Positions 25,668 through 64,000 of a stretch of DNA of 64,000 nucleotides are shown here, in pieces. The DNA comes from Candidatus Bathyarchaeota archaeon (GTDB lineage: Archaea > Thermoproteota > Bathyarchaeia > TCS64): positions 192,001-256,000 of the forward strand of contig CAVYVF010000002.1 in assembly GCA_963771885.1 (NCBI GenBank), read 5' to 3'. Made by a program: the position numbers and the translations under genes. Below the pieces are notes generated by a model. That model was not told the DNA's origin. It saw only the letters and a list, made by a program, of their open reading frames with translations, and did no database searches. Positions within the stretch are counted from its first letter, which is position 1. Every line of letters starts with the position of its first letter.

Positions 25668-26702
25668 ATTTGGACTGAACTAAACAGACTGAGTGGACTC
25701 CGACTCTTCACAGATGAAATGGGCATACTTCAACACTCAATGTTCGGCGTAATCGACAGAAGACATGGATACACGACAGATGACAACGCCAGGGCCCTCG
25801 TGGCCTCAGTGCGCTTTCATAATAGATTCGGCGGAGAGGAAGCCACTCACCTTGCCAAGAGATACCTCGAATTTCTCCTCTACATGCACATAAATGGGGG
25901 CGGACTTCACAACCGTGTCCAATACGATAAGCAGTATCTGGACGAGGTAGGAACCGAAGACAGCATCGGTCAAGCACTTTGGGCAACGGGCAGCGCATTG
26001 AATTCAAGTCTGCCCCTATCTCTGAAACAGTTATCGAAGTGGCTATTTAATGAAAGCCTACCCATTGCCCGGGGTTTCACCTCCCCGAGGGCGAAGGCTT
26101 TCACCCTTCTCGGTTTATGTGAATACTCACGGGCTTACCCCGACGATGAAAATCTACTAAAGGACTTGAACCAATTTTCGGATTTTCTGGTTCAGAAATA
26201 TTTCGATGCAATGTCGCCCGAGTGGCAGTGGTTCGAGCCATACATAACATATGCGAACGCCAGAATACCCCAAGCACTTATCGAATCTTATCAAATCCTG
26301 AAAAACCCGCGGCATCTTCAAGTAGCAAAAAAAACCCTCGACTTTCTAATCGACTTGCAGTTTGAAAACGGGATCTTCATTCCAATAGGAACAGATGGAT
26401 GGTATCACAAAGGGAAACAAAAAGCGGTTTATGATCAACAACCCATAGAATCTGCCTGCATGACCGAAGCTGCCTTTTTAGCTGCAGAGATCTTTGACGA
26501 CGAAAAATATGGACAGAGAGGGCACGAAGCTTTCCTATGGTTTAAGGGAAAAAACATATCTCGGCTGGCACTAGTTGATACAAATGACTACACCTGTTAC
26601 GATGGCTTGACTCCTAAGGGTGTGAATCAAAATAAAGGTGCTGAGTCATTGATCTCATATCTCTTAGCTGAATTATCTCTGCCCAGTTCTAAGGGCCCTT
26701 AA
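25668..26702 (+). CDS. Glycosidase-like alpha/alpha-barrel protein, the usual partner of this GT4 type; start uncertain
   Basis: TDEMGILQHS, GYTTDDNARAL, WFE.YITY.NA, DQQPIE, CYDGL, NQNKGAES; frame open upstream of the ATG at 25719. Confidence 0.8.
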   Translation: MWTELNRLSGLRLFTDEMGILQHSMFGVIDRRHGYTTDDNARALVASVRFHNRFGGEEATHLAKRYLEFLLYMHINGGGLHNRVQYDKQYLDEVGTEDSIGQALWATGSALNSSLPLSLKQLSKWLFNESLPIARGFTSPRAKAFTLLGLCEYSRAYPDDENLLKDLNQFSDFLVQKYFDAMSPEWQWFEPYITYANARIPQALIESYQILKNPRHLQVAKKTLDFLIDLQFENGIFIPIGTDGWYHKGKQKAVYDQQPIESACMTEAAFLAAEIFDDEKYGQRGHEAFLWFKGKNISRLALVDTNDYTCYDGLTPKGVNQNKGAESLISYLLAELSLPSSKGP

Positions 26703-30356: not shown

Positions 30357-30484
30357 GTTTATCGTTTAGGAATACGAGGTTATATTGATATACCGAGATT
30401 CTTGGGTGAATGCTTTTTTAATGGTTGAATTCTACGCGCGAGCGAATAAAAACAGTATTTATACTGTTGAATGCGGTCAGAAGT

Positions 30485-30560: not shown

Positions 30561-30764
30561 ACTGCCGTTTCATAAACCCGGAGGGATAATATAAGAATAC
30601 CCCCATCTAACGCCACTTTCACATGCAGTGTACCCATCTATCAAAAAGGGCAAAACCTTAAATAATATCTTTTTAAGGATTTCTATGCCCCACGTGAACA
30701 GTTTTCGCATGCTTCCCGCAGGGCGGAGCATCTGCGATGGGCGCGAACAGAATGGTGATGCACA

Positions 30765-31694
30765 ATCAAGCGAGGGCATAAGAGCCACGTCGATGGCGAG
30801 GACCGCTGCCCCGAGTGCGGGAGCGGGAACATGATACACGACGACGACTCGGGCGAGGTAATATGCGGCACCTGCGGACTCGTCGTAAAGGAATCCATGA
30901 TAAACGACGGGCCCGAGTGGCGCGCCTTCACACCCGGGGAGAAAGAGAGCAGGAGCCGCGTCGGGGTCCCCCTCAGCTTCGCCGTACACGACAAGGGGCT
31001 AACGACAGTAATTGGCCGCGTAGGAAAGGACGCCTACGGGCGCAACATACCCCTCAACACAAAGCTCCAGATGCTCAGGCTCCGAAAGTGGCAGATTCGC
31101 TCACGCGTGCACAGCTCTACGGACAGAAACCTCGCCCAAGCTATGGCTGAACTCGACCGACTCTGCGATAAACTCCACATCCCAGCAACCATCAAGGAGA
31201 GGGCCGCCATCATATACAGGAAAGCACTCGACACGGGCTTAGTAAGGGGGCGAAGTATCTCCGCCATCGCCGCCGCTGCCCTCTACGCAGCCTGCAGAAT
31301 AACCCAGACCCCTAGGACGCTCCGCGAGATAGCCCGACAGAGCCCCATAGAGAAGAAAGACATAGCCCGCTGCTACCGCCTAATGCTAAAAGACCTAAAC
31401 ATACAGATGCCAAAACCCGACGCCCAGCTCAGAGTCCCCAAAATAGCTGCAAAGGTCGGCGTAGGCGAGAAGACCCAGCAGGCAGCAGTAGAGATACTCC
31501 GCCGAGCCGAGAAAGTCCGAACCACCGCCGGCAAGGACCCCATGGGCCTCGCTGCCGCAGCCCTCTACATAGCCTGCGTCATGAACAACGAGAAACGCAC
31601 CCAGAAGGTAATTGCAGACGCCGCAGGCGTCACAGAGGTCACAATACGTAACAGGTACAAGGGACTCAAAGACGCCCTAGGACTCGAAGTATAA
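30765..31694 (+). CDS. tfb: Transcription initiation factor IIB; Zn ribbon begins upstream of the first in-frame ATG
   Basis: CPECGS...CGTCG, GPEWRAF, GKDPMGLAAA, TEVTIRNRY. Confidence 0.95.
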   Translation: MKRGHKSHVDGEDRCPECGSGNMIHDDDSGEVICGTCGLVVKESMINDGPEWRAFTPGEKESRSRVGVPLSFAVHDKGLTTVIGRVGKDAYGRNIPLNTKLQMLRLRKWQIRSRVHSSTDRNLAQAMAELDRLCDKLHIPATIKERAAIIYRKALDTGLVRGRSISAIAAAALYAACRITQTPRTLREIARQSPIEKKDIARCYRLMLKDLNIQMPKPDAQLRVPKIAAKVGVGEKTQQAAVEILRRAEKVRTTAGKDPMGLAAAALYIACVMNNEKRTQKVIADAAGVTEVTIRNRYKGLKDALGLEV

Positions 31695-31795
31695 TCACCA
31701 CCGAGTGTCTACAACAATCGACACACGACGAAAACCCCAAATTTTCTCAAAGAACAATATATATCTCAGAGCACTAATCGCAAGGGAGACACCCT

Positions 31796-32920
31796 ATGTC
31801 GGCAAAGGCAAAGACCCTGATCCTGTGCATAGACCAGGACGACGACATAGGTAAAAAGGGTGGAGTCCAAACACCGGTCGTCGGCGCATCGGCAAACCGT
31901 GAGGCGGCGGCGACACTCGCAATCGCTGACCCGGAGGAAGCCGACTCAAACGCGATGTTCGGCGCAATAAAACTCTACAAGGAACTAATTGTAAAGTACC
32001 CAGACGAGGCCTTTGAGATCGCTACTATCGCTGGCTCCACCATGGGCGGCGTTGAGGCGGACCGCGTCATGGTCGAGGAGCTCAAGACTGTCCTGGCCTC
32101 CTTCGACGCGGATGGAATCATCCTCGTGACCGATGGATTCGCCGACGACGTCATGAAACCCATCCTCCAGAGCCGCGTCCCCGTGACGAGCGTACACCAC
32201 GTCATCGTCAAGCACAGTGAGAGAATAGAGGAGACCTACGCCGTCTTCGGCAAGTATCTGCGTATGATAATCGACGACCCCTATTACTCCCGCATTGCGC
32301 TAGGGGTCCCCGGAATACTACTACTCATCTATGGTTTCCTCATCGCCTCCAACCAGCTACAGAACGCTGGTGTCGCCGTCGTCTTCGTCCTCGGCGTCGT
32401 ATTCTTCCTAAAGGGCTTCGGCATCTATGACCGGATATTAACCTTCAAGCCCAAGCTACCGCCACCCGAGGAACAGCCGATGTACGTCGCACGCATCATA
32501 GGCGGGATACTGTCTATAATAGGAATATATCAGGGGCTCAGCTCAGCGATAGGCATCGTACCGACGCCGGTCCTACTCGGCGATATTGGCTGGTGGGCGG
32601 GTATGCTGCCCGTGTTCATTTCAGAGTTCACCCTAAAGGGCATCGACCTGTTAATGCTCGGCTTCGGCGTTTACCTTATCGGCGGTGCCATCTTCCACTA
32701 CCTCGCTAAGGACGAACTAATAGGACAGAGCATCGTCAGCCTCAACCTCGCCTTCTGGGTTTGGTTGATTTTGAGAGAATCAGCGGAGATACTAAAGAAC
32801 CCACAGATAGAGATTACATTCTGGTCGCCACTAATCTTCTACACCTTCGCAAGCATACTCACCACAGTTATACTCGTATTCATAACTTACAGACGGTACA
32901 AACGACTACCATTTACATAG
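31796..32920 (+). CDS. DUF373-family membrane protein
   Basis: LCIDQDDDIG, DPEEADSN, VTDG..D. Confidence 0.85.
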   Translation: MSAKAKTLILCIDQDDDIGKKGGVQTPVVGASANREAAATLAIADPEEADSNAMFGAIKLYKELIVKYPDEAFEIATIAGSTMGGVEADRVMVEELKTVLASFDADGIILVTDGFADDVMKPILQSRVPVTSVHHVIVKHSERIEETYAVFGKYLRMIIDDPYYSRIALGVPGILLLIYGFLIASNQLQNAGVAVVFVLGVVFFLKGFGIYDRILTFKPKLPPPEEQPMYVARIIGGILSIIGIYQGLSSAIGIVPTPVLLGDIGWWAGMLPVFISEFTLKGIDLLMLGFGVYLIGGAIFHYLAKDELIGQSIVSLNLAFWVWLILRESAEILKNPQIEITFWSPLIFYTFASILTTVILVFITYRRYKRLPFT

Positions 32921-32973
32921 GCGGATAATTTAGTCAAGGTTTAAACGGGGTCACCACTCCCCTACTGTGAAGA

Positions 32974-33759
32974 ATGATGCTCAAGGACCTACTCACAGCC
33001 ATAGGCGTGTACCAGGTCTACGGGCGCTGGCTAAAGATGCAGCTAAATGAAGCTGATATGCCGCGCCATGTCGGCATCATCCTAGACGGCAACAGACGAT
33101 GGGCGCGCGGCCAGAACATGAGCCCATGGGAGGGACACTGGGCGGGCGGAGATCACGTAAAAGAGTTCCTAGAGTGGTGCCTCAACCTCAACATAAACAC
33201 TATAACCCTCTACGCCTTCTCCACCGAGAACTTCAAACGCGACTCGAAGGAAGTCGAGGAGCTCATGAAAGTCTACGAGAAGGCACTCCACGACGTGCTA
33301 GCCTCAGATGTAATCGAAAAGTATAGCGTCCGCGTCACCGCCATAGGGCGCAGGAACCTCCTACCCGAGAACATCCAGAGCCTCATCGGTGAGGTCGAGG
33401 AGCGCACAATAGCGAATGACAAGTTCTACCTCAACGTCGCCCTCGCCTACGGCGGGCGCGCAGAGATAGTCGACGCTACCCGGGAACTAGCCGAGCTTGT
33501 CAAGCAGGGGAAACTCGAACCCGGAGAGATAAACGAGGATCTAATCGGGAAACACCTCTACACCAAACACCTCCCCCAGCAGGAGCCCGACCTAATAATC
33601 AGAACCGGCAACGAGTCCCGCCTCAGCAACTTCCTCCTCTGGCAGGCTGCATACAGTGAGCTATTCATCGTCGACGTCTACTGGCCCGACTTCAGGGAGA
33701 TCGACCTACAGAGGGTAATAAGGGACTACCAGAGGCGAAACAGGCGATACGGGAAATAG
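32974..33759 (+). CDS. uppS: cis-prenyltransferase
   Basis: HVGIILDGNRRWA, YAFSTENF, DLIIRT, RLSNFLLWQ. Confidence 0.95.
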   Translation: MMLKDLLTAIGVYQVYGRWLKMQLNEADMPRHVGIILDGNRRWARGQNMSPWEGHWAGGDHVKEFLEWCLNLNINTITLYAFSTENFKRDSKEVEELMKVYEKALHDVLASDVIEKYSVRVTAIGRRNLLPENIQSLIGEVEERTIANDKFYLNVALAYGGRAEIVDATRELAELVKQGKLEPGEINEDLIGKHLYTKHLPQQEPDLIIRTGNESRLSNFLLWQAAYSELFIVDVYWPDFREIDLQRVIRDYQRRNRRYGK

Positions 33760-34830
33760 CTAGAAGATAGCATTCTCGATATCCCTTGGGAACTTCGTGA
33801 GTCTCTTGGCACCGCTCTCGGTTATCTGCACAGAGTCCTCTATCCTCACGCCGCCATATCCGCGAATGTAGACGCCCGGCTCGTCCGACACGACGTTACC
33901 CTCGACAAGCTTCCCCGTACCCCTCTGGCTCACCGATGGAGGCTCATGTATCTCAAGCCCAATACCGTGCCCAAGAGAGTGGATATAGTTGGCGCCGAAA
34001 CCCGCCTCCTCGATGACCTTCCGGGAGACTGAGTCAACATCCTTGCAGCCAGCCCCAGGTTTCATCACGGAGAACGCCTCATCGTGTGAGCGTAGAACCG
34101 TATCATACAGCCTCCGCTTCTTCTCGTCGGGTCTCCCCGCGATGAACGTCCTCGTGATGTCAGAACAGTAACCCCTGTAACACGCGCCAATATCGACCAC
34201 TATCATGTCACCTTTCACAATCTTTCTCTCGGTGCTTGACGCATGAGGGTAGGCAGATCGAGGACCCGAACCCACAGTAAACTCAAACGCGTGCGCCTCA
34301 GCACCCTCCCTCATCATCGCATAACTCGCCTCAGCAGCCAGTTGGTTCTCCGTGACGCCGACGGCAAGTTTCTCCCCCAGCGACTCCATAGCAGCATCTG
34401 CGAGCCTCCCAGCCTCAGCCATCAACTTCAACTCACCCGAGTCCTTCACACTCCTCTGCTCCCACACAACATCCTGATCTTGTCTAAAAACAATCTCAGG
34501 GAGCCTAAGCTCGACACGATCAAGAAATGCAATTGGGAGTTCGTCGAAGCCCACGACGGATGCGTGACTCCCCCTCAACAACTCAGCCAACCTGTTGAGA
34601 AGGCAGGAAGCCGTGAACGTCTCAACCGTGCAGTCCCCCACCGTATCCCGCGTAACATTCTCATCGAGGGAGGAGACAAGTAACAAGGGATCGATGTCAC
34701 TCGCCACGACGAGATAACTTCCCCCTATACTACCCGTATAATACCTGACATTCGGAGACCTCGCCGCCACAAATGCATCGAGCCCGTGTTCGCCTAGTTT
34801 ATCTGCTAGTTTGACGATCCTGCTGGGCAT
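33760..34830 (-). CDS. M24 Xaa-Pro aminopeptidase
   Basis: YCSDITRT, HSLGHGIGLEIHE, EPGVY, GVRIED. Confidence 0.92.
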   Translation of the reverse strand: MPSRIVKLADKLGEHGLDAFVAARSPNVRYYTGSIGGSYLVVASDIDPLLLVSSLDENVTRDTVGDCTVETFTASCLLNRLAELLRGSHASVVGFDELPIAFLDRVELRLPEIVFRQDQDVVWEQRSVKDSGELKLMAEAGRLADAAMESLGEKLAVGVTENQLAAEASYAMMREGAEAHAFEFTVGSGPRSAYPHASSTERKIVKGDMIVVDIGACYRGYCSDITRTFIAGRPDEKKRRLYDTVLRSHDEAFSVMKPGAGCKDVDSVSRKVIEEAGFGANYIHSLGHGIGLEIHEPPSVSQRGTGKLVEGNVVSDEPGVYIRGYGGVRIEDSVQITESGAKRLTKFPRDIENAIF

Positions 34831-35083
34831 ATCTATTCTCTGGTAGGGAAGGTTTAAAAAAGCGACGAAGCATATGATGTTCTCATCTGATGAGAGTAAC
34901 CTCCACGGGAGACGATGAACATCAACCATAATCCAACAATAATACGTAATAATACTGCACAAAATAGGCTCATCCCGAACATCAGACTTGAATTATTCAC
35001 AGGATTATGGCAATACAACAAGTCACCCGGGAACAGTTGCCCAGTCAGATGAGGGATCAGTTTACCAATAGAGGGGAAGGAAC

Positions 35084-38000
35084 ACGGTATACATTAGTAA
35101 GATACTGGTCAAGAACTTCAAGTCGTTCGGTGGCCAGATCAAGCTTAACTTCCAACCCGGGTTCAACGTCATAACCGGTCCCAACGGTAGCGGAAAGAGC
35201 AACATCATCGACGCCGTCCAGTTCGTCCTCGGCGAACTCGCCTCGAAAAGGATGAGGGTACCCGACTTCTCCGGACTCATCTACGACGGCGCAGGCGAAG
35301 AGGACCAGAACAAGCCACAGGTCTCCCAGGTCACTATCTACTTTGATAACGCGGATAGGGGGCTAGCCTCCGACAGGAGTCAGGTCAGCATTGGTAGAAA
35401 GGTCGACCGAGAGGGCAAGAGTGACTACTTCCTCAACGGGAAGCGGACGAGCCGCAAGGCGGTGCTTGACCTACTCCACTTAGCCGGTATCACTCCTGGC
35501 GGCTACAACATCGTCCTCCAAGGCACTGCAACTCGGCTGAGCGACCTGTCTCCCAGCGAGCGCATGGACGCCCTCGAGGATCTCATCGGCATAAAGGAGT
35601 ACGATGAGAAGAAAGCCGAGGCTAAGGGCAAGCTTACTGAGGCGGAGAGAAAGATCGAGGTCTCCGCGGCCCGCATCGACGAGGTTAGGAAGAGGGTCAC
35701 CGAGCTTGAGCGCCAGAGGAATGACGCCCTCAGGTTCAACCACCTAACCCGCGAGGAGAAGCGTCTCACTGCCCAGAAGCTCAGCTTCCAGATCAACCAG
35801 CTCGAGGAGAAGCTCGGCGTCCTCATGGCACAAATGAGGGAGCGCGAGACGGAGGCAGCAAAGCTTGAGGAGGAAAAGACCCAACTCAGAGAGGAGAGGG
35901 AGGCCGCCCGCAACAGGATAGAGGAATTCAACCGCGAAGCCTCCGAACGCGGCAACACGCGCCTCCCTATGTTGAGATCGAACCTCGTAAGCCGACAGAC
36001 ACTCAGGACGGGGCTCACGAACCGCCTCAAGCAGATCGAGACTCGCAACTCACAGCTCGCCAACCTCATCGCCCAGAAGGAGCACGAGCTAAAGGTCAGC
36101 GAGGAGGAGATCGAGGAGAGGAAGAAGAGCCTAGAATCCCTCAAGGCGTCCGAGGCGCAGATAATCGAGCAACTCGCCCCAAATAGACGCGAGCTAGAAG
36201 GATACGCGGGTATAATCAACAATGCCCGCCAATCCGCAGGAGAAAACCAGAGGCAATACGAGAAGCTCACGGAAGGCACGATGCCGATGCAGGAGAGCCT
36301 GAGCGGCATAGAGATTGAAATCAACAGTGTAAGAAGCAGCATCGCGACGATGGGGGACAAGGTTTCAGGTCTCGAGGAACGCAAGGTCGATTTCCAGAAG
36401 ACCATCGAGAGTCTCAACGCAAAGCTCGGGGAATACGCCTCACTCAAAGCCCAGGAGGCGAAGCGCCTCGAGGACATGCTGGGCAACATCGAGGGTCAGA
36501 TAAAGCGCCAGCGAGACCTCCGCAGCACGATCGAGAAGGCGAACGACCTCGCAAAGGAAGTCGAGACCACACTCACTGAGTTCTCGGCAAAGCGCGACCT
36601 CTGGCGCCACGTGATTGTAGAGGAGCGCGCCCTTGAGAGGATCAGGGAGATCGGAGAGGCCGGCGCACTCAATGGCTACCACGGTATGCTGCGCAGGCTG
36701 ATAAAGGTCGATCTACCAAACCAGCGCGCTGTTTACTCCGCTGCCGAGACTTGGATCAACGCAGTAGTCGTCGACGATACAGCGACCGTACTTGATTGCA
36801 TCGATAGGCTCAAGAAGACAAAGTTCGGCGTCTGCAAGTTCATAGCGCTTGACCAACTCGGCGCCCCCGAGCCGCTCCCAGCAATAAACGAAGGGGGGAT
36901 CATCGGTCCAGTTTCAGACTTGATCCGCTGCGACGATGTTTACGCTCCCGTCGTCCACCTCATCTGGGGTGACACATACCTAGTAAAGGACGACTCCGCG
37001 GCGCTCAAAGTTGTCGCACAAGGTCATAGAGCAGTAACCACCGCTGGTGACGTATACGAAGCGGGCGGCGGCTTTAAGGGAGGCTTCTACAGGAGGCCCC
37101 CCGACTACGCCAAGCTCATCCCCACAGAAGAGTCCATCGACAACCTCAGCAAGACCATCAAGGATCTCCGTGAGCGTTTGAAGACCCGGATGACGGAGCT
37201 AAAGTCTAGCGGCGGTAGCCTCCGCGGCTTCAACGCCTTCATGGACGGCTCCAAGGAGACCATGACGAAGATAGACGCTGAGGTCGTGGAGACGAATCTG
37301 AGGATCGAGCGCATCCAGAAGAACATAGAGCAGGCTGAAGAGTCTATAACCAAGTACCGCGCCGAGGCAGAACGCCAGAAGGGTCTCATCACGTCACTCG
37401 ACGATAGGAAGCAGCACATTACTCAGCAAATCGAGGAGACAAAGAAGGAGATCGCCAAGCTCAGGGAGTTCAAGCCCAGCGACGTCACCGACCTAGAGAT
37501 AAAGAGCGCCGCTCTCCGCAAGTTCGTTTCGGAGCAGCAGGAGCAGCTAAACAAAGTCCAGAACGAGATCGCCGTCCAGAAGAGCTATATCGAGCGCATA
37601 TTGAGTCTCCGCCTCACCGAGGCATCCGAGCAGAGGCGCAGGATGCTCGAGGAGGTCAAGTCACTCGAGGACGAGCAGATAACCTCTAACCAGCGCCTCA
37701 TCGAGTCCGGCAGGGAGATCGAGACTCTGGAGCGCGACCTCGACACCATCTCCACCGAGGTAGAGGCGACCAGCAAAGTTCTCGACCAGCACCAGAAGAC
37801 ACTCCGCATGGTCAACCAGCGCATAGAGGACCTTGAGAGGCGGCGCGAGGCCGAGGATAAAAGAATTAACCAACTCAGCCTCGACATAGAGCGCCTCAAG
37901 CTGCAGAGCGAGCAGCGACTCGACGAACTCGCCGCGAACGGCTACGAGGACAAAATAGACATCGCCGGTGTGGAGCTAGAGCGGGTCGAGGGACGCCTGC

Positions 38001-38650
38001 AACTCGTCCGCCAGGAAAAGAACGGCCTCGGCGCCGTCAACCAGCTCGCACTCGACCACTACGACGAGTACATGAATAACTACAAGAGCCAGAGCACTAG
38101 GATCAACGAGCTCGAGGAAGAGAAGGCGGGTATCCTCAAGTTCATCGAGCAGGTGGAGAAGGACAAGACCGCCCACTTCATGGCCGCATTCAACGAGGTG
38201 TGCGAAAACTTCAGCCACCTCTTCAGCCGCGTCACGGGCGGCGGCGATGGTAGGCTCGAGCTCCAGAAGCCCGAGGACCCATTCAGTGGAGGCGTAGACC
38301 TCTACCTGCAGTTCCCAGGTAAGCCCATGAGGCTTGGCAGCGGCGCTTCAGGCGGCGAGCGCTCAGTCGCAGCTATTGCCTACCTCCTAGCAATCCAGAG
38401 ATTCCTCAAAGCCCCCTTCTACCTCTTCGATGAGATAGATGCCCACCTCGACGACCTCAACACGAGCAGACTCGCCGAAGTCCTCAAGGACACAAGCAAC
38501 GAAGCACAGTTCCTCATGGTCAGCCTCAAGGACGTGATGGTTCACAAGGCGGACCGCATCTACGGCGTATTCGCACAGGGTGGGAAGAGCCGCGTCCTCG
38601 CCCTCCCCATGAAGGGGCTGCAAAAGGTCGAGGAGACGACTCCGCCTTGA
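35084..38650 (+). CDS. smc: Chromosome segregation protein SMC (inferred ACG start)
   Basis: xVYISKILVKNFKSF, GPNGSGKSN Walker A upstream of the first ATG, coiled coils and hinge, SGGE, LFDEIDAHLD. Confidence 0.95.
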   Translation, partial: TVYISKILVKNFKSFGGQIKLNFQPGFNVITGPNGSGKSNIIDAVQFVLGELASKRMRVPDFSGLIYDGAGEEDQNKPQVSQVTIYFDNADRGLASDRSQVSIGRKVDREGKSDYFLNGKRTSRKAVLDLLHLAGITPGGYNIVLQGTATRLSDLSPSERMDALEDLIGIKEYDEKKAEAKGKLTEAERKIEVSAARIDEVRKRVTELERQRNDALRFNHLTREEKRLTAQKLSFQINQLEEKLGVLMAQMRERETEAAKLEEEKTQLREEREAARNRIEEFNREASERGNTRLPMLRSNLVSRQTLRTGLTNRLKQIETRNSQLANLIAQKEHELKVSEEEIEERKKSLESLKASEAQIIEQLAPNRRELEGYAGIINNARQSAGENQRQYEKLTEGTMPMQESLSGIEIEINSVRSSIATMGDKVSGLEERKVDFQKTIESLNAKLGEYASLKAQEAKRLEDMLGNIEGQIKRQRDLRSTIEKANDLAKEVETTLTEFSAKRDLWRHVIVEERALERIREIGEAGALNGYHGMLRRLIKVDLPNQRAVYSAAETWINAVVVDDTATVLDCIDRLKKTKFGVCKFIALDQLGAPEPLPAINEGGIIGPVSDLIRCDDVYAPVVHLIWGDTYLVKDDSAALKVVAQGHRAVTTAGDVYEAGGGFKGGFYRRPPDYAKLIPTEESIDNLSKTIKDLRERLKTRMTELKSSGGSLRGFNAFMDGSKETMTKIDAEVVETNLRIERIQKNIEQAEESITKYRAEAERQKGLITSLDDRKQHITQQIEETKKEIAKLREFKPSDVTDLEIKSAALRKFVSEQQEQLNKVQNEIAVQKSYIERILSLRLTEASEQRRRMLEEVKSLEDEQITSNQRLIESGREIETLERDLDTISTEVEATSKVLDQHQKTLRMVNQRIEDLERRREAEDKRINQLSLDIERLKLQSEQRLDELAANGYEDKIDIAGVELERVEGRLQLVRQEKNGLGAVNQLALDHYDEYMNNYKSQSTRINELEEEKAGILKFIEQVEKDKTAHFMAAFNEVCENFSHLFSRVTGGGDGRLELQKPEDPFSGGVDLYLQFPGKPMRLGSGASGGERSVAAIAYLLAIQRFLKAPFYLFDEIDAHLDDLNTSRLAEVLKDTSNEAQFLMVSLKDVMVHKADRIYGVFAQGGKSRVLALPMKGLQKVEETTPP

Positions 38651-39309
38651 CCGAGAGAAAGGAGAAGCCCTATTACCTCCGCCAGCCCTGGGACATACTT
38701 TTCAGGGAGAACAAGCTTGAGAAAATAAGCCCCTGGGACATAAACCTCGTCACACTCCTCACCAGCCTTCTAGAGGAGATGGAACGCGTTGGCATCGACT
38801 ACAGGATAGCGGGCACAGCTGTGAATAGTAGCGTCTACATTTACCTGAAGAAGGCGGAGATGCTCCTCGCAATGGAGGAGCCCCCCGCTCCGCCGATGGA
38901 ACATGGAGATGTCTATCTACCTCCACCGGTGCCGCTTCCCTTCAGGTTCGAGTTCACAACGACCTCAGTGCAGGACCTCATCAATGCGCTTGAGCGCGCC
39001 CTTCAAGAAGAGAGCAGCCGCGGTGAAGTTCCACGCCTTCCGACGCTGCCAATACCGATCCCCAACTTCCTCGACTTCGAGACCTACCTCCTCGAAGTGG
39101 AGGCTCGGAGTGACGAGCTGCTGGAGAAGATGAAGGCGTCGAATGAGACCGAAAACCGCCTGAGCAAGATGATAGCTGGCTTGGGTTGGCTCGAAGCGGT
39201 GAGGTTATTCATGATGCTCCTCTTCCTCGCACAGAGGATGGAGATAGACCTCGACCAGGACGAGGATGAGACGGATGTAACGGTGAGGGTGAGGGTGAAG
39301 AATCTTTGA
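38647..39309 (+). CDS. scpA: Segregation/condensation protein A
   Basis: PWDINL, FMMLLFLA; follows smc. Confidence 0.85.
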   Translation: MTERKEKPYYLRQPWDILFRENKLEKISPWDINLVTLLTSLLEEMERVGIDYRIAGTAVNSSVYIYLKKAEMLLAMEEPPAPPMEHGDVYLPPPVPLPFRFEFTTTSVQDLINALERALQEESSRGEVPRLPTLPIPIPNFLDFETYLLEVEARSDELLEKMKASNETENRLSKMIAGLGWLEAVRLFMMLLFLAQRMEIDLDQDEDETDVTVRVRVKNL

Positions 39310-39860
39310 TGTCGGTATCGGAAAAGCGGCAAGTCAAACTGACTGAGCTCGAGGCGGCGCTCTACTCTGCTGGACACCCGCTCGACATGGAGGAGCTTAT
39401 GCAGGCGCTCGGGAGCAGGTCTGAGAAGATGGTGCTACGCTACGTCGAGGAGCTCGCTAAGAAGCTCGACGCACGCGGCGGCGCGCTCGAAGTGAAGAGC
39501 CTCCCCGGCAACAGGGTCGTCATGCAGCTCCGCCCGGAGTACGGGAAGATGGTGCGCCAGTTTACGAACCGGCCTCTCCTCACTGTCGGTCCCCTAAAGA
39601 CCCTCGGGTACATCGCTTACAACCAACCGATCGAGCAGGCGCAGGTCCTCGACTACCGCGGCGTCCACGTCTACACTCAACTGAAGCTGCTGGAGGATAT
39701 GGCACTGATATCTAGGGAGCGCATGGAGAAGGGGGTCATCATAAAGACGACGCCCTTCTTCGCCGACTACTTTGACCTCAGCCCAGACCCGGGGAGGAGT
39801 AGGCTCCAGATAATCGAGCTTTTCAGTAGCCTGCACCCGGAGCTCGTGGCGAGGGGCTAG
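39306..39860 (+). CDS. scpB: Segregation/condensation protein B
   Basis: LEAALYS, LKTLGYIAYNQPI, TTPFFADYF. Confidence 0.92.
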   Translation: MMSVSEKRQVKLTELEAALYSAGHPLDMEELMQALGSRSEKMVLRYVEELAKKLDARGGALEVKSLPGNRVVMQLRPEYGKMVRQFTNRPLLTVGPLKTLGYIAYNQPIEQAQVLDYRGVHVYTQLKLLEDMALISRERMEKGVIIKTTPFFADYFDLSPDPGRSRLQIIELFSSLHPELVARG

Positions 39861-40883
39861 CAGACGCGGGGAATCGGCTCCCCTATCGGCTTTCGGAGTA
39901 TCCTAGTGCCGCCGACCTGCGTCTTCATGAGAACCATGCCGGGGCGCTCGGCTTTGACCTCGCCGATGATTGCGGCATCAACTCCATATTTTGTAGCCTT
40001 AATTGCATCTAGTGCTGCGTCCGCCTTCTCAGGGGCGACGCAGATGACCGCTTTGCCCTCGCATGTGACCTCGTAGGGATCGAGGCCCAGCATATCGCAG
40101 GCGGAGCGGACCGCCTTCTTAACGGGAACCTTACCGTCTTCGAGCCATATGCTCACCTTCGACTTCTCCGCGAACTCGTTGAGGGCAGCAGTAAGGCCCC
40201 CCCTCGTGGCGTCCTTCATCGAGTGGATGCCTCCTACATCTAGAGCGGCGCTGATGGTCTCGACAGATCGGGGAGACGTCTGAGATAAGCTCCGTCTTGA
40301 AGCTGAGCCCACTACGGACGCTCATGAGTGCCGTACCGTGATCTCCAACGGTTCCCGTCACGATGACCCTGTCTCCTGGCTTGGCTTGACTGTCGAGTAT
40401 CCGAGGCCCGTGGAGCACTCCCACGCCCGTTGTGGATATGACGACCCCATCGAGCGAGCCAGCGGGCATAACCTTGAAGTCACCACTAATTATCGCTACG
40501 CCAGCCTCCTCAGCGGCGGCATTCATCGACGCGACGAGCTTCTTCAGGTCGGCGATGGAGTAGCCCTCCTCGACGATTATAGCATCGAGTATGGCGACGG
40601 GGTTCGCACCCATAACAGCTGTGTCGTTTACCGCGCCGCAGACGGCGAGCTTACCCAGGTCCCCGCCAGGGAAGAAGATGGGGTCGACCGTGTGTCCGTC
40701 CATGGTAAGTATGACCTCCTCACCGCCGATCCTGATTGAGGCCCCATCATCAAGTGCGTCGAGAGGGACGCCGTTGAGCGCCTGTCTCCTCGTGAAGCCC
40801 TTGAGGAACAACTCCTTGATGATAGCGTCCATCGCGGTACCGCCGGCGCCGTGGCTGAGCTTTACGAACTCGTCATTCGCCAA
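39857..40883 (-). CDS. hypE: Hydrogenase maturation protein HypE, frameshift near 40265
   Basis: LSHGAGG, DPIFFPGGDLG.LAV.G.VND, MKDATRGG, C-terminal PRVC. Confidence 0.9.
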
Positions 40884-41032
40884 ACCGATTCTCAGCCATA
40901 TGTTACGCGATGAGAGATATATCTATCCAAAAACGTGTCAATTCAGCAGCATTAAAGCCCCGAAAACCACACCTTTTTTATACCCCGCTCTCAACTACGG
41001 CTATAGCAACTCGGCTCAAATAGGAGGAGCAG

Positions 41033-41419
41033 GTCACGGTCTGGAACGATACTTTAACAAAGCGCAAGGCGACGGGCGGCAAGAAGAGGCCTTACAGGGC
41101 ACACCGCATCTACGAGGTCGGCAGGCACCCAGTAGAGACACTCGAGGGCGAGCAGAAGCTCAAGACTGTCAGTGGGCGTGCTGGAATCGAGAAGGTGAAG
41201 ATCGTCCGCGCGAACATCGTAAACGTCTCCGACCCAGAGTCTGGGAAGACGGAGAAGCTCGACATCATCGACGTCGTGAGCAACCCCGCGAACGCGGACT
41301 ACAACCGCCGCGGCGTGATCACGAAGGGCACGATAGTGAGGACCGAGAAGGGACTAGCGAGGATCATTAGCCGCCCCGGCCAGACCGGCTCTCTCAGCGC
41401 AGTCGTCTACAAGGAGTAA
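41033..41419 (+). CDS. rps8e: 30S ribosomal protein S8e (inferred GTC or ACG start)
   Basis: VW...KRKATGGK, in frame with NPAN..YNRRGVITKG and SRPGQTG. Confidence 0.92.
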   Translation, partial: VTVWNDTLTKRKATGGKKRPYRAHRIYEVGRHPVETLEGEQKLKTVSGRAGIEKVKIVRANIVNVSDPESGKTEKLDIIDVVSNPANADYNRRGVITKGTIVRTEKGLARIISRPGQTGSLSAVVYKE

Positions 41420-41441: not shown

Positions 41442-41744
41442 TTGGGGGCTAGGTGCTCAGCTTGCAGATCAAAGGGTAAAATAATTCTCTGGCCTATCTA
41501 CTTCGACTCCACAGTTTCATGGAGCAACGGCCGTCGTGTGCCAAAGGTGAATGCTATTCGAGCGCCGAAGACCGAGGACATTGTTAAGGCAGCCGTATCG
41601 GCGGGACTCAAGGCTGAGCTCCAGCCAAACGTCGCCCACCCTCGCTACCCCTTCATTAAATCGGGTTACGTCCTCGTTGACACCAAGGAGCCTAAGGAGA
41701 AGGTCATCAAGCTGATAGCTAGCAAACTGCCCCGCGGCAACTAA
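41442..41744 (+). CDS. srp19: Signal recognition particle 19 kDa protein (start uncertain)
   Basis: ILWPIYFD...GRRVPK...HPRYP..SG. Confidence 0.9.
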   Translation: MGARCSACRSKGKIILWPIYFDSTVSWSNGRRVPKVNAIRAPKTEDIVKAAVSAGLKAELQPNVAHPRYPFIKSGYVLVDTKEPKEKVIKLIASKLPRGN

Positions 41745-50640: not shown

Positions 50641-51612
50641 CTGCAATGTTGCAAGACGGAATTAATCAAGCATGGGATCGGCGACACGATATTTACACAT
50701 TCCCGCAATCTCGAACAGTTGCTTGGATACAGCAATATTTACCTGAAATTTGAGGGCGGCAACCCGACTGGGACGATGAAGGACCGCGCGTCCTACGCCT
50801 GTCTCAGGCTGGCTAAGAGGAAGGGTTACGGGGAGGTCGTCATAGCCTCATGCGGTAACTTCGGCGCGAGCTATCGTCAGCACTATCACGATTCTTCGGC
50901 GTCAAGGTGCACGTCTACATTCCCGAGAAGTACCACACGCCCCGCATAGCATCCATGGAGAAGCTGGGCGGGATCATACACAGGGCTCCCGGCACCTATG
51001 AGGACGTTGTCGCCCTCTCCAGTGAGGAGGCGGCGAAGCGTGGATGGTACAACGGGAACCCCGGTACACCCGAGAACAGGAAGGTATCCATCGAGGCATA
51101 CGCTACGATCTCCTACGAGATCGCAAAAAGGCTAGGGGACGCACCTGACGTGGTCGCTGTCCCAACAGGCAACGGCACGACCATCGCTGGAATCAACCAC
51201 GGCTTCCAGGTCCTCCTAAGGAGAAGGAAAGACAAAGAAAGCACCCGCATTAATTGCTGCTAGTACAACGGGTGGAAACCCCGTAGTCTCCTGTTTCCTC
51301 GAAGGAGAGAGGATGATCAGTGACTTGAAGCCGGACAGCATCGACGAGACCAATGTAAACGAGCCCCTCGTCAGCTGGATTAGCCTTGATGGGCAGGACG
51401 CCCTCGACGCGGTCTGGGAGAGCAAGGGCTGGGCTGTACATATCGCCGACGAGGAGATGATCCGGTACTCGGAGATCCTTCTTCGCGAGGAGGGTCTCTC
51501 GGTGTTGCCCGCTTCCTGTTCATCCGTCGCCGCCCTCCCCCTCTACATCAAGGAGAGAAAGCTGAGGAAGGGCCTTGACCTCGTTGCTTTACTCACGGCG
51601 AGGAACTTCTGA
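50641..51612 (+). CDS. Fold-type II PLP enzyme (threonine synthase-like), two frameshifts, start uncertain
   Basis: LKFEGGNPTGTMKDR, ASCGNFG, PTGNGT, EEGL.V.PAS. Confidence 0.8.
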
Positions 51613-63863: not shown

Positions 63864-64000
63864 TTACTGGACCTCGATGTTCTCCTGTGGGAAACCCAGA
63901 TCTATCAGGACGTCCCTGACTACGTCGCGGTGGTCACCCATGAGCATTATTTGCTCGTCCTTTGCCGTGCCACCGCAGGCGCATTTGTTCTTCAACTGGG
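63864..64000 (-). CDS. Translation initiation factor aIF1/SUI1, C-terminal part
   Basis: LKNKCACGGTAKDEQIMLMGDHRDVVRDVLIDLGFPQENIEVQ*. Confidence 0.88.
   Translation of the reverse strand, partial: QLKNKCACGGTAKDEQIMLMGDHRDVVRDVLIDLGFPQENIEVQ

Follow-up and report, generated by a model that had tools for sequence, protein, structure and literature searches.

Apparent near-cognate start codons, most often ACG, in core genes of Bathyarchaeia

Here, we analysed a stretch of 64,000 nucleotides (the window; positions 192001-256000 of contig C2, GenBank CAVYVF010000002.1) from the 2.46-Mb, 23-contig genome of a Candidatus Bathyarchaeota archaeon (G000), in which the genes for TFB, SMC and ribosomal protein S8e appear to start at the near-cognate codons ATC, ACG and ACG, respectively. 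The explanation that we favour, with a probability of roughly three in four, is that such codons are translated through the ordinary initiator Met-tRNA: a Shine-Dalgarno duplex would hold the ribosome at ACG, CTG or ATC, the initiator would pair with one mismatch and still give methionine, and aIF1 of these archaea is probably lax in proofreading start codons. The case was built on the sequence of the window, on 40 relatives (41 genomes including G000) and on contigs of other sequencing runs.

Three core genes lack a canonical codon ahead of their conserved N-termini

The features at the three loci are given below in window coordinates; pairing energies refer to the 3' end of the genome's own 16S rRNA.

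30752..30781, plus strand: out-of-frame mini open reading frame with ATG at 30752, a GTG and ATG at 30758, running to TAA at 30779; identical in the relative G003
30754..30759, plus strand: Shine-Dalgarno-like GGTGAT before TFB, containing the in-frame stop TGA (30756-30758); 16S pairing -9.6 kcal/mol
30765..31694, plus strand: TFB gene, putative start ATC (the least certain of the three), 309 amino acids, zinc ribbon CPEC/CGTC intact (alignment, Pfam)
35069..35083, plus strand: in-frame stop TAG (35069) and purine-rich Shine-Dalgarno-like stretch before SMC; 16S pairing -6.9 kcal/mol
35084..38650, plus strand: SMC gene, putative start ACG, 1188 amino acids (column conservation in relatives)
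41021..41027, plus strand: in-frame stop TAG overlapping the Shine-Dalgarno AGGAGG (41022-41027) before S8e; 16S pairing -9.9 kcal/mol
41036..41419, plus strand: ribosomal protein S8e gene, putative start ACG, 127 amino acids (column comparison; contig of run X1 agrees)

An initial annotation, made from the letters of the window, had proposed near-cognate starts for these three genes, and our re-reading of the sequence found its positions for the stops, motifs and codons to be correct throughout. Its claim that no usable ATG, GTG or TTG precedes the conserved N-terminus also held, as the next canonical in-frame codon lies 22 codons downstream in TFB (ATG 30831, beyond CPEC), 56 in SMC (35252, beyond Walker A) and 53 in S8e (41195, beyond 40% of the protein). 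Pfam matches start ahead of that codon in all three: the TFIIB zinc ribbon at residue 14 of TFB, position 1 of the SMC_N profile at residue 3 of SMC, and position 4 of the S8e profile at residue 7.

These codons could be assembly errors or lesions, or translation could begin at a later canonical codon. Broken frames are common in the assembly, where 124 of the approximately 2,055 predicted genes (the count used for all rates) were flagged as shortened by a canonical start, mostly fragments, and another candidate of the initial annotation, CTG 50641, proved to be an artefact (see below). However, the same contexts were found in G003 (96.3% DNA identity over the TFB gene). DNA contigs of runs X2 and X3 span the TFB start with 0 gaps, the X1 contig has one gap at 30419, outside the start, and the X1 contig over 41036 carries 3 differences that leave the codon unaffected. 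Since they are common to independent genomes and to contigs of other runs, the codons at SMC, S8e and TFB are genomic and not assembly errors. Later starts, in turn, would cost SMC its Walker A motif, S8e 53 residues and TFB two zinc ligands. We thus regard error or a later start as highly improbable. The sequences make a strong case for SMC and S8e and a moderate one for TFB, and from them we infer translation from these codons.

The start columns of SMC and S8e switch between canonical and near-cognate codons

The start column of S8e was readable in 16 genomes of the genus and contained ACG in 6, CTG in 2 and ATG in 8. Because the ATG of these 8 relatives falls in the column of ACG 41036, the S8e start is this ACG; of the two positions left open by the initial annotation, GTC 41033 was ruled out. 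The sequence of G010, one of the six ACG genomes, ends just upstream of the codon. Outside the genus, a canonical codon stands in the column or one codon earlier in 13 of 13 genomes, and in a wider set of 80 S8e loci (78 readable, overlapping with the set of relatives) 5 near-cognate starts were found, all among the closest matches. On a tree of concatenated proteins, ACG of S8e occupies four separate places, in three of which the sister carries ATG. Since ATG and ACG replace each other between sister genomes even in the gene of a ribosomal protein, the cost of ACG would seem to be small.

In SMC, the column contains ACG in 12 of 18 genomes of the genus, ATA in 2 (G001 and G010) and ATG in 4, with canonical starts in 12 of 12 genomes of other genera and CTG in the distant genome G036. 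This pattern bears on a second explanation, namely that the starts are real but deliberately poor and serve to lower or regulate chosen genes under ordinary archaeal proofreading, like infC in bacteria or dnaA and rpsL in Deinococcus. The occurrence of ACG in 12 genomes, of ATA in a second branch and of CTG far away suggests gene-specific selection against ATG, and such steady non-ATG starts on SMC keep the regulatory explanation alive. S8e argues the other way, since this protein, of which each ribosome needs one, swaps ATG and ACG between sisters with the strength of the Shine-Dalgarno pairing unchanged.

The TFB start is probably ATC, and the weaker cases do not hold equally

The ATC of TFB lies 5 bases behind GGTGAT. 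Its column is occupied by ATC or ATA in four other genomes, and in the TFB gene of G007, too, ATC comes after a stop and none of the next 77 codons is canonical. Judged from these sequences, translation of TFB probably starts at ATC 30765. For this gene alone one may also think of an out-of-frame ATG combined with a frameshift, or of reinitiation after the mini open reading frame. In several relatives, an ATG stands in frame one or two codons ahead of the ATC column, and ATG 30758 is its counterpart, but out of frame in G000 and G003; moreover, TTC fills the column in three relatives, and the genome contains five TFB matches. We consider a route to TFB that bypasses ATC rather unlikely. Rescue by one indel, which the initial annotation had suggested through an out-of-frame ATG near 30793, was rejected, as was the same route through ATG 30758: contigs of other runs are gap-free and show no indel at the TFB start, and the context is the same in G003.

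The two weaker cases of that annotation are as follows.

50641..50643, plus strand: CTG, not a start; one surplus base in the assembly displaces the frame of the PALP-family gene, whose start is TTG/ATG (ATG 50646) (comparison with relatives)
25668..25670, plus strand: ATT, candidate only; aligned with the ATG of G008, residues after it not conserved; an indel could explain it

CTG 50641 was discarded as an indel artefact, because the in-frame TTG and ATG of the PALP-family gene are present in 7 of 7 relatives. Single-base indels relative to contigs of other runs were also seen at window positions 40265 (4 of 4 runs), 41465-41466 and 30419. They are probable assembly errors, in a hydrogenase-maturation-like gene and ahead of an SRP19-like gene.

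Eleven further genes of the genome share the property

We screened G000 for coding sequence ahead of the first canonical codon combined with a ribosome-binding motif and a near-cognate codon, which yielded 43 rows. Relatives were then checked for nine hand-picked genes, that is the eight new genes that looked best in the screen and a PyrI-like gene from the list of shortened genes. For 7 of the 9, one relative or more carries a canonical codon in the column of the near-cognate one. Top6B, of DNA topoisomerase VI, has ACG in G000, G003 and G012, having arisen twice on the concatenated-protein tree, and ATG in 7 genomes; the KH/Dim2 column, readable in 29 genomes, contains CTG in 6, GTG in 21, TTG in 1 and ATG in 1. 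The remaining five are INO1 (ACG; ATG in G001), Hsp20 (ACG; ATG in G016 and G001, TTG in G021), an HD protein (CTG; GTG in G001), a NUDIX protein (ACG; ATG in G001, ACG in G021) and the PyrI-like protein (ACG; TTG in G001 and G021). XPF has ACG in four genomes and TTG one codon off in G001, and the single orthologue of ThiS shares its ACG. Comparing the genome with G013 brought in an amidohydrolase (ACG versus TTG) and a cation-efflux (CDF) protein (CTG versus GTG and ATG). A near-cognate codon thus occupies the canonical column of orthologues in SMC, S8e, Top6B, KH, INO1, Hsp20, HD, NUDIX, PyrI-like, amidohydrolase and CDF, while in XPF and TFB the canonical codon of relatives lies within one or two codons and not in the same column.

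With these 11 cases beyond the first three (8 ACG, 3 CTG), the set comprises 14 genes: 10 ACG, 3 CTG and 1 ATC. ACG makes up only 1.9% of codons in G000 (ATC 3.5%, AAG 4.9%), yet it accounts for 10 of the 14 unusual starts. The floor rate is at least 14 of 2,055 genes, or 0.7%. The G013 comparison (4 near-cognate among 116 anchored positions) gives an estimate of about 3%, which omits starts common to both genomes and includes misanchored rows; the count for G016 was 0 of 46, because its SMC and S8e starts are ACG too. The relaxed choice of start codons proposed by the initial annotation finds support, at SMC and S8e, in conservation and in same-column switching among ATG, ACG, CTG and ATA, and beyond them in the 11 further genes.

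The predominance of ACG and CTG raises the question of C-to-U editing of the mRNA, as known from plant organelles, by which ACG would become AUG and CUG would become UUG; one such change would suffice to make 13 of the 14 codons (10 ACG, 3 CTG) canonical. However, ATA (SMC of G001 and G010, Top6B of G021) and ATC (TFB, and aIF1A of the distant genome G038) are not convertible, so editing cannot explain the whole set. In addition, the KH column uses all four first bases, as first-position wobble predicts, and a search of G000 with PF00383, the one editing family searched, gave one stand-alone deaminase-like open reading frame (165 amino acids) and one split match. Editing is, in our opinion, very improbable.

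Other candidates from the screen are endonuclease III, ABC, THUMP-region and lipoate-ligase genes and the locus C7:112571. The endonuclease III gene after hflX has a candidate CTG/ACG start (G000:C2:363116-363140) and no canonical codon for about 80 codons; its start regions shown in G003, G006 and G013 contain no canonical codon in the first approximately 30 codons. The PyrI-like gene (G000:C23:429664 onward) has about 420 codons, with a PyrI domain followed by a phosphoribosyltransferase-like part, and the frames are 411-430 amino acids long in four relatives. Two other approaches were discarded: unfiltered pairwise anchoring was overwhelmed by antisense frames, fragments due to indels and conserved upstream DNA, and a self-training start model open to all 61 codons came to favour spurious ones (CGA, TCC and others ranked above ACG).

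Apparent near-cognate starts are scattered through Bathyarchaeia

Nine further cases were found in G021, G034, G035, G036 and G038, all lacking a canonical codon as far back as the stop upstream, and with 16S pairing of -8.7 to -14.8 kcal/mol. G036, of which 140 kb were screened, has 4 clear cases among 96 anchored genes (uL29 ACG, uS3 CTG, SMC CTG, FeoB ACG). Rpp29 starts at ACG in both G034 and G035, and G021, which belongs to another genus, has Top6B at ATA and NUDIX at ACG. The aIF1A gene of G038 has a strong ribosome-binding motif followed by an apparent ATC start, and feedback on initiation fidelity is possible there. Within the large ribosomal protein operon, for which all counts were made after misanchored rows had been removed by eye, near-cognate starts amount to 4 of 91 gene-genome pairs in other orders (uL29 and uS3 in G036, Rpp29 in G034 and G035), 0 of 99 in the family and 0 of 108 in the order. 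The trait is thus scattered through the class, being seen in one other genus and in the genomes of four distant Bathyarchaeia. The initial annotation had ascribed relaxed selection to the lineage; the trait is not confined to it (G021, G034-G036, G038) and concerns a small share of genes.

The initiation components examined are normal apart from changes in aIF1 and 16S rRNA

The window itself contains part of the gene for the factor in question.

63864..64000, minus strand: 3' part of the aIF1 (SUI1) gene, encoding the start-codon proofreading factor; intact, canonical start; loop 1 RKWSK, LMGD for LQGD (alignment)

Loss of aIF1, an altered initiator tRNA and an altered anti-Shine-Dalgarno were rejected as causes, all three being normal. 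The initiator tRNA has A1 and three G-C pairs in the anticodon stem, the 16S 3' end is the standard anti-Shine-Dalgarno, and aIF1 was found in 36 of the 41 genomes. In G000, aIF1, aIF1A and aIF2 beta are all present, each with a canonical start. Autoregulation of the infC type was not seen, as the fidelity-factor genes of G000 start canonically and ATC on aIF1A occurs in G038 only. The 790 loop, the 1338 region and the uS9 tail are all normal, and in aIF2 beta we found nothing that ties to the trait.

Two features may serve as leads for the cause of laxity. The first is the 16S base which we assign, by a conserved motif, to position 1400 in E. coli numbering: it is U in 9 of 9 sequences of the same order and C in all 4 sequences of other orders. 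Base 1400 stacks on the P-site wobble pair. The second is aIF1, whose loop 1 reads RKWSK (G-to-S) in 16 of 16 genus sequences shown, and in which LMGD replaces LQGD in the 16 genus sequences and in G021 and G024; the aligned structure sequences have LQGD in two archaea and human and IQGD in E. coli YciH. Loop 1 of Pyrococcus aIF1 is RYGK, and R31, Y32 and K34 are described as binding 30S or stabilising mRNA (PMC6237735, accessible text). Speculatively, lax proofreading could stem from the aIF1 changes particular to the genus, from U at 16S 1400, or from a property that archaeal initiation has in general.

Several side observations concern the same machinery. A second initiator-type tRNA-Met lies on C10 and, together with two GC groups among the contigs of G000 (small 0.44-0.50, large 0.55-0.58), fits the stated contamination of 6.7%. 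In the 16S rRNA (C23:481356-482853 in G000), a C1414-A1486 mismatch in helix 44 is common to the genus and G025, and a compensated stem variant of helix 45 is found in G000, G006, G008 and G013 and not in G001, G012 or G016; the 16S match of G034 spans 1,737 bases versus about 1,498 in others, which suggests an insertion or intron. Mutations of E. coli helix 44 around position 1413 may increase non-AUG initiation, but our literature search brought up no paper on this and we give it no weight. The aIF1A gene that stands upstream of rio1-KH-top6B in relatives is an 11-codon remnant in G000 (C23, around 181200, minus strand), with first and last residues joined. One aIF1A is kept elsewhere in G000 (C23:679773), and 13 of 40 relatives have two aIF1A matches.

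Shine-Dalgarno pairing and the weight of the evidence

All 14 sites pair with the 16S 3' end of G000 (-6.9 to -12.1 kcal/mol), partly by selection. In Top6B, the two independent ACG lineages pair more strongly (-11.2, -11.2 and -13.2) than the 7 ATG genomes (-5.8 to -6.6).

A number of observations weigh against lax initiation held in place by Shine-Dalgarno pairing. Median pairing is stronger at the 14 near-cognate sites than at 148 anchored canonical starts (86 ATG, 39 TTG, 23 GTG; -9.6 versus -7.1, p=0.0007), but this difference is inflated, most candidates having been chosen for a motif. Compensation by stronger pairing is seen in Top6B only; there is none in S8e and KH, and in SMC the relation is reversed, the ACG sites (-6.8 to -9.1) pairing more weakly than 3 of 4 ATG sites. 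The bias towards a purine at -3 is not significant (12 of 14 versus 93 of 148, p=0.14). Whichever base of ATG is changed, a near-cognate codon results; a list of codons is therefore weak by itself, and the argument rests on absent alternative starts; in G011, one of the six S8e ACG genomes, an in-frame GTG does lie 8 codons upstream. Among three RNA runs examined, contigs of X18 and X19 cover S8e but begin at 41070 and 41121, 34 and 85 bases past the codon, and X20 gave no contig over the gene. Basic loop-1 residues are kept in aIF1, which is present, and Sulfolobus aIF1 rejects AUU (PMC4705826, accessible text). Nor do the candidate causes follow the distribution of the trait: near-cognate starts occur in G034, G035, G036 and G038, although aIF1 of G035 keeps the loop-1 G and LQGD, and 16S of G034 and G036 keeps C1400. 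Finally, the large ribosomal protein operon has no near-cognate start in any of 330 gene-genome pairs of the genus.

The absence of such starts from this coupled operon would suit deliberately poor, regulatory starts, and so would the ACG of Rpp29 in two distant genomes, the several nucleic-acid or ribosome-assembly proteins among the targets and the apparent ATC of aIF1A in G038. However, unrelated enzymes and a transporter belong to the set as well, and no shared upstream motif other than Shine-Dalgarno was seen. Together with the switching of S8e, this makes regulation an unlikely explanation, and initiation by the ordinary Met-tRNA under lax proofreading remains the one that we prefer. More tentatively, and with a probability somewhat below even, ACG may be a routine and efficient fourth start across Bathyarchaeia, with CTG, ATA and ATC tolerated. 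In archaeal relatives of eukaryotes, an eIF1/eIF2-type machine would then operate with a eukaryote-like near-cognate spectrum on essential genes, and the U that the order has at the near-universal P-site base C1400 would, with the aIF1 changes, mark a natural relaxed-fidelity ribosome.

Significance and comparison with known systems

To our knowledge, ACG is absent from the initiators of table 11 and is not an accepted prokaryotic start. For this reason gene callers would cut such genes short, so that SMC would lose Walker A, TFB its zinc ribbon and S8e 40% of its length, or would call them pseudogenes, and this in an abundant uncultured class of archaea. The ATG and ACG alleles of one gene in sister genomes are natural test pairs for the strictness of archaeal aIF1 proofreading, and the matter bears on whether strict AUG selection is a eukaryotic addition.

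Our literature search, which left most subscription journals and supplements outside, found no report of such archaeal starts; the accessible portions of PMC6412873 and of a Haloferax ribosome-profiling preprint (10.64898/2026.09.13.751334) contain nothing on ACG starts. The accessible text of PMC4705826, PMC6237735 and PMC6412873 allows AUG, GUG and UUG as the only archaeal starts. The Bathyarchaeia resemble this canonical picture in their normal initiator tRNA, anti-Shine-Dalgarno and factors, and depart from it in having ACG, CTG, ATA and ATC in start positions. Plant organelles create start codons by C-to-U editing of genomic ACG; the genomic ACG at the start position is a likeness, whereas the occurrence of ATA and ATC is not.

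In Deinococcus, which offers the closest proven parallel, DnaA starts at ATC, RpsL at CTG and infC at ATA (PMC2830850, accessible text). As there, conserved near-cognate starts are found in essential replication and ribosomal genes and were missed by annotation. The Deinococcus cases belong to a bacterial IF3 system and are proven by peptides, while those of Bathyarchaeia are predicted from genome sequences. CTG, ATT, ATA and ATC were considered in Deinococcus, and ACG is absent from the main text of that paper (PMC2830850); in Bathyarchaeia, ACG is dominant, more genes are involved and the codons switch between sister genomes.

Viral ACG starts exist among the eukaryotic examples of near-cognate initiation. 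Eukaryotes and these archaea share homologous factors (aIF1, aIF1A and aIF2 beta on the archaeal side) and the same codon set, and eukaryotic initiation at CUG, ACG and AUN is policed by eIF1 (PMC4705826, accessible text). Unlike in eukaryotes, the Bathyarchaeia starts appear to be positioned by Shine-Dalgarno pairing, without a significant Kozak-like purine bias at -3, and to serve as the main starts of single-copy housekeeping genes.

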